From: a virus
Taxonomy: Duplodnaviria > Heunggongvirae > Uroviricota > Caudoviricetes
Length of the DNA stretch: 45,637 nucleotides
Virus record (IMG/VR): IMGVR_UViG_2529292910_000009
Coordinates: 1-45,637 of that record
Strand: one strand, 5' to 3'
Position numbers: made by a program. Shown here piece by piece: positions 27,001 to 30,000 of this stretch. The first letter of the stretch is position 1, and each line of letters starts with the position of its first letter.

Positions 27001-30000
27001 TCAGCTTCCTGTTTTGTAGCCACGGCATGACCGCTGATTAACAAAACTTTCCACTGTTCTGGTTTTAGCCATCTGCCGCACCACTGAACCTGTCGGGAGA
27101 TATCAGCGACCATCGCGTGAAATTTGGCATTTTGATCGAGATTCCGCTTGTAATCGGTGATGCGGATCGTAACGGGTTTGTCTTTATCGAGAGTTGTTGC
27201 AAGGATGGCGTTAATGGCGAATTGTTGCTGCTGCTTACTTCGGAGGAAGATAGTCTGGTTCATTATTCCCTCTCACTGGATTTTCCCAACAAAAAAGGAG
27301 CCGAAGCTCCTTTAGTTTCAGAATTCAAATTGTCTTGCCCGCAGGCTTTTCAGCATTGGCATGGCCCGCTGGATAATGGAACTTGACATGTCGAGACGTG
27401 TTACCTCCCTTAGTAGCGCGTCTCTGTTCTTCGTCACCATGTAGATGGTCTCAAACGCAATGTCATACAGCTTGTTCGTGTATGAGGAGTTCAGCTCTTT
27501 CATAATGGGATACAGGTGTTTGCTTAGGTCCTGGGCTTTTTCCATCCAGAGCTGCATGTAGCAAAGGAGGATGATTTCTTCGGCTGTGAATTGTGGCTGA
27601 ATCTGCGGCTGCTGTTCGGTTGGTGCTGTTTTTCCCTGGCTGAAATAGCAGTCTTCCAGTTTTTCGAATACCTCCCACGCCTGATCAGTTTCGAGCATTT
27701 TTGCGTGACGGGCTGCGCCGCGTTCTGTCCATAGGATGAGGGAGCGAACGTTACGGGCAATTTTCACAGAGTAGTTAAAAGCTACTCTGTGCTTGAACTC
27801 ACGTAAAGTTTCACCTTCAAGTTTGAAGAAGTGTTTTTCCTCAATGAAACGACCTTTGTTTTCGTGGTGATTCTGGCGAATACGAATAGCTTCTGTGCCG
27901 TAAAGGTGCGCCAAAAGTTCGGTAGTGATAACGGGGATCTGCTTGTAAGTAATCGTGGAGAGTGTTTCAACAGAAACTTGAGTTGTCATAATGACGCCCT
28001 CGAGTGGTTTCTAAACTATCACCACCGTCAGGTTCCTAATCATCGGGTGGCGAGACGTACAGGGTTAGGAACTACCGGGAAACCAACCGGCGAGCTTTTC
28101 AGCTCCCCTATACGCCCCACCATAATTCAGATGTGCGTGTGCATACGACAATAAAAAACACGCTCGCGGCGTGTCTCTGTCGCGGTTTCTATCCGGGGTT
28201 CCTAATCCCGACGCCAGATTTTGCTGGCGTGCGATGAATATAATCCCGGATACGCGACGTTGTCAAACTGATGGCATTGCAGATCCCTACGCAATGTAAC
28301 ACTATGTGTTATACATTAATAACGGAACAAAAAATGCGCATTTTTAAAAACGCCTGGTTTGAGCGATTTGCACGCAAAAACAAAATATCCGACCAGTCAC
28401 TGCGCGAAATTGTTAAACAGGCTGATAACGGGCTTATCTCAGCAAACCTGGGTAACGGCGTTATCAAGCAACGTCTGCCACGAGTCGGTGGCGGCAAATC
28501 TGGCGGTTATCGCACAATCATTTTCTATCGCGTCGGCACAAGGGCCTTTTTCGTATATGCATACGCAAAAAATGAACGTGAAAATATAACCGCTACTGAG
28601 GCATTTCGGAAGGGGCTCCTCACGTACTCAATCTAACAGATGAACAACTGGCACAACTGATTCTACAGGGTCAGTTTACGGAGGTACCCAATGAGTAAAA
28701 ATTACCGCAGTGATGCGCTTGCATCCGTACATGAAATGATGGAATCGCTTCATGATATCGGCGCAGTAACGAAACAGACTATGCGAGAATTCGATGAAAC
28801 TTGTCTCCAGCCAGCGCCGGTAATGTCTCCGGAAAGGATCCGTGCACTGCGCGAACGAGAGCATCTGTCTCAACCTGTTTTTGCCAGATACCTCAACGTC
28901 AGTAAAAACCTGATATCAGACTGGGAACGTGGTGTAAAACGGCCGGGAGGTGCCGCTCTTCGCCTTCTTTCAGTCGTAGAGAAAAACGGAATCCAGGTAA
29001 TATCATGATACTCCAATACAACAAAACCCGCCGAAGCGGGTTTTCATTAGAAGCACCTTTAGTTTTGCTGTTCTATTTTAAGCTTGATAGTTTCATACAA
29101 AACAATAGTTGCGCCTGTTTTACATAATTCCCGGCTGTCATACGCACGAGACCAATAACACAACCAGTTCTCGAGATCTTCTCGAGTATAGGTTTTGCAG
29201 GCCAGTCCCTCTGCCATTTCCACGATTTCATCGCCTGGTGCTGTTAACTCATAGCCATTCAACAACAAGAAGACATAACCAGCCATCATAGCTGTTCGTT
29301 TGTTTGCATTAGCAAATGGATGATTCTGAATCAGACTTTCAATCAATACTGATGCCAGTACAAACATGTCATTAGTCTGTTCATACCATCGAACCATGCT
29401 GGGACGAGACTGAGAAGAACTTAAATTATCAACACTCAGCACACTAACAGGTTCATCTGGTGTTTGAAGCTCAATTAAAAGGCGATTAATTTCGGTAAGA
29501 TCATCAAACGAAAGGTAGTGCACTCCTTCAACAATCTCAGCCATAGAGCACAATACCCATCATTACACTTTTGAAAGTTCTTCCATTGCCTTCTCGTAAC
29601 GAGAAAAACCGAAATCGAAAGCATTTTTCACCTGCTCACGATGAGTGCAATTTTCATCGATAGCCGGGCGCGGAGCTGCCACAACGCTTTTATCGCGAGG
29701 GGGAATAGTCAATCGCGGGTGTTTTTTTAGTGCGTAGCTCATTGGGTGTACCCTTACTTCTCCGTCCTGTTCTTTAACAAAAATCAAGTCAATACAAAAT
29801 TAGTCAGGCTAATGTTGTTAGCATAGCCTAATACCGATCGTATTCACAACCACAGTACGTGAAAAAACCCGCCGAAGCGGGTTAAGTGCGGGTGCGTTGA
29901 GGATGCCTGACACATCAGAGGTGGCGAGGGATTTCTCCCTCGCCTGGTCTCTTACTCCTCAGGTTCGTAAGCTGTGAAGACAGTGACCTCCGTCTGGCCG

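Follow-up and report, generated by a model that had tools for sequence, protein, structure and literature searches.

The 45,637-nucleotide (nt) stretch of Caudoviricetes DNA analysed here (IMG/VR virus record IMGVR_UViG_2529292910_000009, positions 1 to 45,637; the whole stretch is hereafter called the window) contains a segment of 303 nt at 27291-27593 that recurs in inverted orientation at 770-1072. We propose, with a probability of roughly 0.8, that this inverted repeat is the 3' module common to two paralogous riboregulated antirepressor (ant) cassettes of a lambdoid prophage, and that it reflects ordinary module shuffling. Several elements of this proposal are directly supported by the sequence: the repeat and its borders, the domains of the two proteins, the RNA families, the co-variation of antisense motif, target and decoy in eight cassettes, and the mosaic pattern of the alleles. 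Each cassette consists, in order, of a promoter-like site, a short leader with a decoy, a C4-type RNA, a target at the ribosome-binding site, the ant open reading frame (ORF) and a terminator. The two combine unrelated N-terminal domains (ORF6N in the right gene, AntA in the left) with the same C-terminal domain allele and terminator, and would be controlled by riboregulators that do not cross-react (GUUCCUAA and UGGUUUC on the right, CUUAUUUG on the left).

The inverted repeat is formed by the 3' ends of two antirepressor genes

A repeat search of the window returned a single inverted repeat of at least 40 nt, with arms at 758-1072 and 27291-27605 (315 nt, 97% complementary, spacing 26218 nt). 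When aligned base by base, 770-1072 and the reverse complement of 27291-27593 differed at five of 303 positions (98.3% identity), exactly at the coordinates at which the original prediction had paired the two segments. The additional 12 nt of the tool-reported arms contain five mismatches and are not truly repeat. Right outside both ends of the core, 5' of the QFTAEE codons and 3' of the terminator T-run, identity falls to background. Of the five mismatches within the core, those at 838 and 1018 are synonymous, those at 966 (His/Arg) and 986 (Val/Ile) alter the protein, and that at 1049 falls outside the coding sequence. A match of 303 nt at 98% within 45 kb lies far beyond chance expectation. 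The arms and the genes to which they belong are as follows.

27291..27593, minus strand: right repeat arm; 3' part of the right antirepressor gene, with its last ~91 codons (P22_AR_C-type module), stop codon and terminator
770..1072, plus strand: left repeat arm; counterpart of the right arm in the left antirepressor gene, with C-terminal module, stop codon and terminator
27318..27989, minus strand: right antirepressor-like gene, 223 amino acids (aa); ORF6N (residues 12-98), Gln/Pro-rich linker and P22_AR_C
416..1045, plus strand: left antirepressor-like gene, 209 aa; AntA (residues 22-91) and P22_AR_C
27294..27313, minus strand: predicted right intrinsic terminator hairpin, between ant and ninB; 8-bp stem, UUCG loop and U-run (terminator scan and fold)
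1050..1072, plus strand: identical left terminator; hairpin at 1050-1069, then UUU

The repeat had also been predicted to be the C-terminal part of antirepressor genes and to include a terminator hairpin, GGAGC-UUCG-GCUCC. Both claims are borne out by our analysis: the two arms are the C-terminal thirds of antirepressor-family ORFs on opposite strands, and the hairpin is present in each of them with a U-run after it. Because the two genes face opposite ways, their shared 3' part reads as a 303-nt inverted repeat. To this we can add the riboregulated cassettes, the location of the borders at a domain linker and a conserved terminator, and the wide spread of the module in E. coli and Shigella prophages.

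Pfam searches assigned ORF6N (PF10543) to the right protein (71.0 bits, gathering score 27.8) and AntA (AntA/AntB family, PF08346) to the left (92.4 bits, gathering score 27), together with P22_AR_C (PF10548) in both, at 31.4 bits against a cut-off of 22.4 (residues 116-179 on the left and 129-192 on the right). The AntA domain is named after the antirepressors of P1 and P7. Both proteins match PHROG 377, 'anti-repressor Ant' (E = 1.5e-85 for the right protein). When the two were compared by BLASTP, only the C-terminal ~110 residues aligned, 94 of 110 being identical, and the N-terminal halves were unrelated; this places the 5' border of the repeat within the Gln/Pro-rich linker that joins the domains. 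When the module was used as a tblastn query, 79 phage records matched, and nearly all of these were Stx (Shiga toxin) or lambdoid phages. As the Salmonella matches shown by this search were only 47% identical, we rejected a direct equivalence to the Ant proteins of P22 and Phi24B and kept a similarity at the level of the family.

At the other border, the sequence beyond the stop codon and within the repeat amounts to only 27 nt. On the minus strand, the right hairpin (27313..27294) reads AAAGGAGC-UUCG-GCUCCUUU and is followed by UUUGUUGG, so that the 3' end of the gene has the GC-rich hairpin and U-run of a putative Rho-independent terminator. Folding of the 51-nt terminator context gave -16.0 kcal/mol on the right (z = -3.3) and -14.2 kcal/mol on the left (z = -1.4). 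Compared with six related left loci, the terminator agrees at 25-27 of 27 positions (at all 27 in five of them), whichever C-module allele precedes it. The edges of the repeat thus coincide with the inter-domain linker and with a universally conserved terminator, which argues for an exchange of C-modules and of whole ORFs, both among loci and among co-resident prophages; the repeat is most likely the footprint of such homologous exchange.

We also observed a hairpin with a 12-bp stem and a T-rich tail on the antisense strand within both arms (27393-27424, plus strand; 939-970, minus strand). It appeared terminator-like in the scan, and could stop antisense transcription or be coincidental.

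Both genes are preceded by C4-type RNAs with matching target and decoy sites

Upstream of the two genes we identified the following elements.

28237..28266, minus strand: right sigma-70 promoter-like site; TTGACA-18-TATATT, matching the consensus at 11/12 positions
28153..28243, minus strand: putative IsrK-like short leader RNA (equivalent of the a1/b1 decoy region) with its own terminator hairpin and U-run (Rfam and complementarity)
28043..28127, minus strand: C4-type antisense RNA in the right ant leader (Rfam RF01695)
28005..28039, minus strand: predicted C4 target sites on the right ant mRNA (complementarity to C4)
168..262, plus strand: left promoter-like site and short leader; promoter at 168-197, TTGACA-18-CATACT (promoter scan)
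287..375, plus strand: C4-like antisense RNA of the sRNA-Xcc1 family in the left ant leader (Rfam RF02221)
399..429, plus strand: predicted target sites of the left RNA (complementarity)

In the right cassette, the C4 family (RF01695) matched over its full length (1-87) at 66.0 bits, against a gathering score of 45, and the RNA lies 53 nt upstream of the ant ATG, as in an immI-type leader. Its unpaired nucleotides 56-63 (GUUCCUAA) are complementary to a target, UUAGGAAC, at 28039..28032, 4 nt past the 3' end of C4, and its hairpin-2 loop UGGUUUC (nucleotides 43-49) is complementary to GAAACCA at 28011..28005, which lies shortly before the GAGGG Shine-Dalgarno sequence and the start codon (ATG, 27989). 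The cassette therefore has candidate downstream target sites of the a2/b2 type. The isrK family (RF01394) matched at 28153-28230 on the minus strand with 69.2 bits (gathering score 50), and an upstream decoy copy of UUAGGAAC (28205..28198), corresponding to the a1/b1 copy, lies in a hairpin loop of this IsrK-like leader. A candidate ORF of 27 codons (MVGRIGELKSSPVGFPVVPNPVRLATR; 28040-28123, minus strand) was noted wholly within the C4 RNA; it stops 50 nt before ant, and its position recalls that of orf45 in Gifsy-1.

In the left cassette, the sRNA-Xcc1 family (RF02221) matched over its full length at 69.1 bits (gathering score 53). The hairpin-2 loop of this RNA, CUUAUUUG, is complementary to CAAAUAAG at 399-406, overlapping the AAGGAGG Shine-Dalgarno sequence, and its AGUUGAC is complementary to GUCAACU at 423-429, in codons 3-5 of ant. 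The leader carries the upstream decoy CAAAUAAG at 210-217, followed by a weak hairpin and a T-run, and this decoy is kept, and co-varies, in relatives. The recognition sites of the window's two cassettes show no cross-match.

Antisense motif, target and decoy change together across relatives

When seven related loci were scanned, six carried a C4 or sRNA-Xcc1 RNA of its own before each ant gene, tandem pairs included; in the seventh, the left locus of the E. coli O104:H4 prophage (L005), no RNA match exceeded the threshold and the RNA region was 66% identical. Across eight cassettes we found seven different recognition motifs, and in each cassette the target downstream and the copy upstream have altered in step with the motif. 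Motifs and their targets are listed below.

Window, left cassette: CUUAUUUG with CAAAUAAG
Window, right cassette: GUUCCUAA with UUAGGAAC
Relatives: CUUGUAAG with CUUACAAG
Relatives: CUUGUAU with AUACAAG
Relatives: CUUUCGA with UCGAAAG
Relatives: CUACUUG with CAAGUAG
Relatives: UUUCGAG with CUCGAAA
Relatives (L001, C4-type co-variation): GUUCCAA with UUGGAAC

The target lies 4-25 nt downstream of the RNA across the eight cassettes; in the six of the sRNA-Xcc1 type the distance is 15-25 nt, which puts the target on the Shine-Dalgarno sequence or slightly 5' of it. These sites were found by an exact-complement search, RNAduplex having returned uninterpretable long duplexes on long flanks. In shuffled sequences, an RNA-complementary 7-mer in both flanks arose 8-27 times per 5000 shuffles per cassette, the chance for the right cassette being about 0.4%. 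At the level of sequence, this co-variation is strong evidence for antisense control of the P1 type with private specificities.

Mosaic alleles and the distribution of the module

Iyer, Koonin and Aravind reportedly described domain shuffling of phage regulators in 2002. Comparison of the left locus with six relatives revealed a mosaic: identity is 92-100% in the leader and in the dksA-like gene downstream, 77-97% in the N-terminal part of ant and 67-97% in the C-module. The C-module alleles fall into three classes (>=96%, ~90%, the type of 933W L0142, and ~63%), all of which are found at either locus without sorting by locus. The high-identity allele occupies the right locus in O104:H4 and in the 75/02 Stx phage, and the left locus in SCU-104 and 23CRST047; in other genomes the module is joined to N-terminal domains of the BRO-N or Rha type.

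Some relatives carry two antirepressor cassettes in tandem at one locus (L001, 4519-6320; L006, 1787-3441; L002, 325-1614), each with its own C4 or sRNA-Xcc1 RNA and with different recognition motifs, and such tandems are known at both loci. The window's single genes align to these tandem loci as if one cassette-length (~0.9 kb) were absent, a pattern consistent with unequal exchange between the repeated 3' modules.

The module was found in 193 of 5426 complete E. coli genomes, at 279 places and often twice per genome. A protein present on 808 public contigs is listed as 100% identical to the right protein, and the exact left protein is found on at least 20, some of which have the window's gene order (e.g. 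GCA_000249655.2, contig AIFY01000034.1). A homologue search with the 91-aa module returned mostly proteins truncated ('partial') at contig ends, and is poorly suited to a census of domain architectures; since so many database proteins that end in the module are truncated in this way, the module appears to be a repeat that breaks assemblies.

Proposed mechanism and points that weigh against it

By homology with immI of P1 and P7 and with the Gifsy-1 locus, the C4-like RNA, probably cut from the cassette transcript, would pair beside or over the ant ribosome-binding site and leave Ant untranslated. The short leader RNA, which carries the same site, would titrate the antisense RNA and in this way turn Ant on, and Ant would then counteract the prophage repressor CI, promoting induction. 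The terminator would end cassette transcripts and, at the right locus, could block read-through into ninB...Q while N-antiterminated pR transcripts pass. That both genes are functional antirepressors is what we infer from their annotation (PHROG 377) and from analogy with Phi24B, P22 and Gifsy-1.

A number of observations weigh against this account. The promoters of both cassettes are consensus matches only, with 10/12 positions matching on the left, and the c4-a1b1 family (RF03163) matched at 28190-28243 only under relaxed thresholds, with 44.0 bits, just under the gathering score of 46.7. A coupled upstream ORF of the icd/orf45 type is absent, the 53-nt gap between C4 and the ant ATG holding none. 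Near neither ant promoter did we find a LexA box (TACTGT-N8-ACAGTA with at most three mismatches; 17 matches in the scan, 12 expected). As to the proteins, searches by sequence gave no meaningful match to a solved structure for either of them, and an AlphaFold2 model built from a 21-sequence alignment was of low confidence, with a mean predicted local distance difference test score (pLDDT) of 47.9; its C-module contains three long helices (135-164, 170-195 and 203-220) with pLDDT of only 56-75. The shared P22_AR_C module may serve in repressor binding or in oligomerisation. Finally, the antirepressor of Phi24B has a C-terminus that shares 82% identity with P22 Ant, while the similarity of the present module to P22_AR_C is weak, and function is therefore transferred by analogy.

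Regulation through SOS and LexA of the Gifsy/N15 kind is not supported here, since the boxes returned by the scan lie away from both ant promoters.

Alternative explanations for the repeat

We considered whether the near-identity of the arms could reflect recent gene conversion within this genome (concerted evolution), the alternative being that each locus had separately gained this allele from other prophages. In the 272-nt coding portion, identity of the left copy is 98.5% with its own right copy, 98.9% with that of O104:H4 and 97.1-97.4% with the nearest left-locus orthologues; these values, and the lack of clustering of the alleles by locus, speak for conversion. However, these differences total only three to five nucleotides, the left copy is no nearer to its own partner than it is to the right copies of other genomes, and the presence of the exact left protein on at least 20 contigs implies that the combination is not unique to this genome. 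Exchange with a co-resident prophage fits the data equally well, and we regard conversion within the genome as unlikely. The similarities of the left copy hint at exchange between loci, and are such that gene conversion and horizontal replacement are inseparable by them. It is also conceivable, although improbable, that the conserved 3' end gives rise to a 3'-derived small RNA ending at the shared terminator, like IsrJ, which lies directly after the antirepressor gene in Gifsy-1 (PMC4825925). The terminator is conserved at 25-27/27 positions across left-locus variants even where the coding module is only 67% identical, which would fit such an RNA. Yet only 27 nt lie past the stop codon, and neither arm matched an Rfam family at threshold, the sub-threshold matches being at chance level (at best STnc40, 23.7 bits against a gathering score of 45, E = 0.2; and Plastid-psbA-2, E = 0.42); a role as terminator together with use as a recombination anchor suffices to explain the conservation.

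A functional role for the inverted geometry itself appears very improbable. In this scenario, a RecA-dependent crossover between the arms would flip the 26-kb ninB-Q-lysis-morphogenesis-b segment, either as a switch or as a way of grounding the prophage, uncoupling Q and the late genes from pR. The arms do bracket the whole late region, and 303 nt at 98.3% are ample for homologous recombination. Against this, a query for the inversion junction (left flank, repeat and reverse-complemented ninB flank) was covered to at least 80% in none of the 5426 complete E. coli genomes, only some tens of which have the high-identity allele at both loci, so that rare inversions could be missed; only the two native halves of the query matched. 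Nor is there an invertase gene among the ORFs and annotations examined. Moreover, the inversion would disable lytic growth, which would make it a dead end and not a switch. A rare inversion that grounds the prophage is possible and unsupported. We therefore treat the inverted geometry, for which there is no evidence of a function of its own, as a by-product. The notion that the repeat is an artefact of assembly (a collapsed or duplicated repeat, or a mis-oriented scaffold) takes its appeal from the fact that the module breaks short-read assemblies, many proteins that end in it being 'partial' at contig ends. It can hardly be credited, however, when the copies differ at five positions and are joined to different N-terminal halves in frame, when finished genomes carry the same two loci in the same relative orientation, and when Q, as biology requires, stays downstream of pR in the orientation that the window shows. 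The shared 3' module of two antirepressor cassettes remains our preferred reading of the repeat.

Prophage context and neighbouring features

Judging from its sequence, the window comes from a 933W/Sepvirinae-like lambdoid prophage that lacks stx and is integrated beside ynfF/ynfG. The closest phage records are those of Shigella phages 75/02 Stx and POCJ13, followed by many Stx phages, and the right locus with its flanks is 99.9% identical to an E. coli O104:H4 prophage integrated beside ynfF/ynfG. The prophage repressor is an S24 (LexA-like) CI. In the slot between Q and the lysis genes (22739-24649, minus strand), which is the stx site in related Stx phages, we find genes for DUF1737 and DUF6645 proteins; the prophage is not toxin-converting.

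The right antirepressor gene lies in the nin region, co-directional with O/P-like replication genes and directly upstream of ninB (26853-27263), ninE, rusA, ninH and Q. Between the replication genes and the right cassette there is a cluster of toxin-antitoxin genes (28271-30364), which comprises a RelE-family toxin (28271-28636) with a helix-turn-helix partner (28691-29008), a Doc-type toxin at about 29059-29553 (from the annotation of the 99.9%-identical O104:H4 prophage) and a hok/sok module (Rfam sok, 30102-30276, 116.9 bits). Just downstream of the Q gene (25371-25904), a match to the STnc100 small RNA family was seen at 24871-25032 on the minus strand (76.8 bits). It presumably represents the leader of pR' or a short late transcript, and is present twice, in tandem, in L001. 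Direct repeats of 41-49 nt, 92-100% identical, occur at 33509-33594, inside the O-like gene (33168-34250), and at 34281-34433, within a small upstream ORF (34271-34489), and could represent iterons of an origin or a partially duplicated segment.

Of the genes within the prophage end, the left antirepressor gene comes first. Relatives have ynfF and a truncated ynfG directly before it, and in a circular phage map it comes after int and the attachment site. Downstream of it are genes for a DksA/TraR zinc-finger protein (1093-1314), a DUF4752 protein and an Ea22-like protein, and it converges on a gene whose product is an LPD-domain virion protein of 1706 aa. No more than about 100 nt from the prophage end, beside the truncated ynfG, a long hairpin (43-82, plus strand) is formed by two near-identical inverted halves of 17 nt (ACATGCAAAGCTTTGT...), which may be related to the attachment site or be a terminator. 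Elsewhere in the window, a tail-fibre-like ORF of 679 aa (16244-18283, minus strand) contains collagen-like Gly-X-Y repeats with a period of 9 nt (16647-17592), where the local GC content reaches 61%.

Implications for prophage immunity and annotation

Known phage biology, in the form of domain-shuffled antirepressor paralogues in immI-like cassettes that are common in public genomes, would explain the observation fully, and the locus leaves current understanding unchanged. Only mildly new, if our reading of the sequences is right, would be sRNA-Xcc1-family RNAs that serve as C4-type antirepressor regulators of variable specificity, and the presence of two orthogonal cassettes in one prophage. 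The locus indicates that one prophage can hold two separately riboregulated antirepressors with one common effector domain, the repeat marking the recombination joint. For annotation, this offers an explanation for contig breaks and for 'partial' Ant proteins, and gives a role to matches to sRNA-Xcc1, C4 and isrK in prophages.

More tentatively, and at less than even odds, lambdoid prophages of the Stx type may carry a combinatorial anti-immunity toolkit of antirepressor cassettes, each locked by its own private C4-like RNA 'key', at least seven specificities of which were seen here. If so, N-terminal target-recognition domains would re-assort onto a common C-terminal effector module through recombination at the linker and the terminator; sRNA-Xcc1, published as a trans-acting integron small RNA, would be a cis-encoded C4-type regulator of antirepressor translation in enterobacterial prophages; and the two cassettes of one prophage would answer different signals or different co-resident prophages. 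An antirepressor provides a route to induction alongside RecA-stimulated cleavage of CI, as shown for the ant gene of Phi24B (PMC3064807), and such genes can therefore affect the lytic switching of prophages of this kind, toxin-carrying relatives included.

Comparison with known systems

The right shared terminator occupies the same position, upstream of ninB, as tR2 of lambda. Lambda tR2 is itself positioned just upstream of ninB. The family of P22 Ant (PF10548) is represented by the C-module, which scores above the cut-off in both genes and is combined with interchangeable N-modules (AntA and ORF6N here, BRO-N and Rha in relatives). In contrast to P22, however, the module scores weakly (31 bits), an N-terminal domain other than P22_AR_N is present, and a C4-type RNA takes the place of Mnt/Arc/sar of P22 immI.

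The Stx phage Phi24B, which is short-tailed, has an antirepressor gene between its replication genes and Q, as is the case here, and when this nin-region ant gene is deleted, pR' activity after induction reaches only 27-56% of the wild-type level (Fogg et al. 2011, PMC3064807). No riboregulator is described there, and the module in the window, being only distantly related, is a different allele or family member. In APSE phages of Hamiltonella, c4 and isrK RNAs precede a BRO-N gene and an sRNA-Xcc1 RNA precedes an ORF6N gene, in likeness to the window; these phages differ in host and phage type, and neither a common C-terminal module nor an inverted repeat is reported for them (PMC7313666).

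A further parallel is the isrK-orf45(STnc1160)-anrP-isrJ locus of Salmonella Gifsy-1, where, as is predicted for the right cassette, a short RNA of the IsrK family that ends in a terminator of its own precedes a read-through transcript, which includes both a processed RNA and an antirepressor-like gene. In Gifsy-1, short IsrK acting in trans raises translation of anrP from the read-through isrK-orf45-anrP mRNA 139-fold (Hershko-Shalev et al. 2016, PMC4825925), the processed STnc1160 RNA between isrK and anrP is complementary to IsrK, and the locus drives prophage induction (PMC4825925). Activation of translation in trans by the short RNA and promotion of induction are thus known features of that locus. 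Unlike Gifsy-1, the window shows neither an evident orf45 with translational coupling nor an IsrJ homologue after the gene, and its right cassette lies in the nin region of a 933W-like phage; the likeness noted here is one of RNAs and gene order.

Another parallel is the immI operon of P1 and P7 (P51 - a1 b1 - c4 - a2 b2 - icd - ant1/ant2), in which c4 RNA acts as a repressor of ant by way of sites upstream that are complementary to it (Citron and Schuster 1990, as summarised in PMC7313666). The window differs from immI in that it has no icd-like coupled ORF, the target lying directly before the ant ribosome-binding site; in that the phage is lambdoid, with a CI/S24 repressor in place of P1 C1 and with two cassettes per genome; and in that the C-terminal domain is P22_AR_C and the left RNA belongs to the sRNA-Xcc1 family and not to C4 proper. 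What the two have in common is a C4 antisense RNA in the leader of an antirepressor operon, with a complementary decoy upstream, a site downstream at the start of translation, and specificity alleles that vary among related phages; the left gene has the AntA domain, and the right cassette matches C4 in Rfam, with c4-a1b1 just below its threshold.

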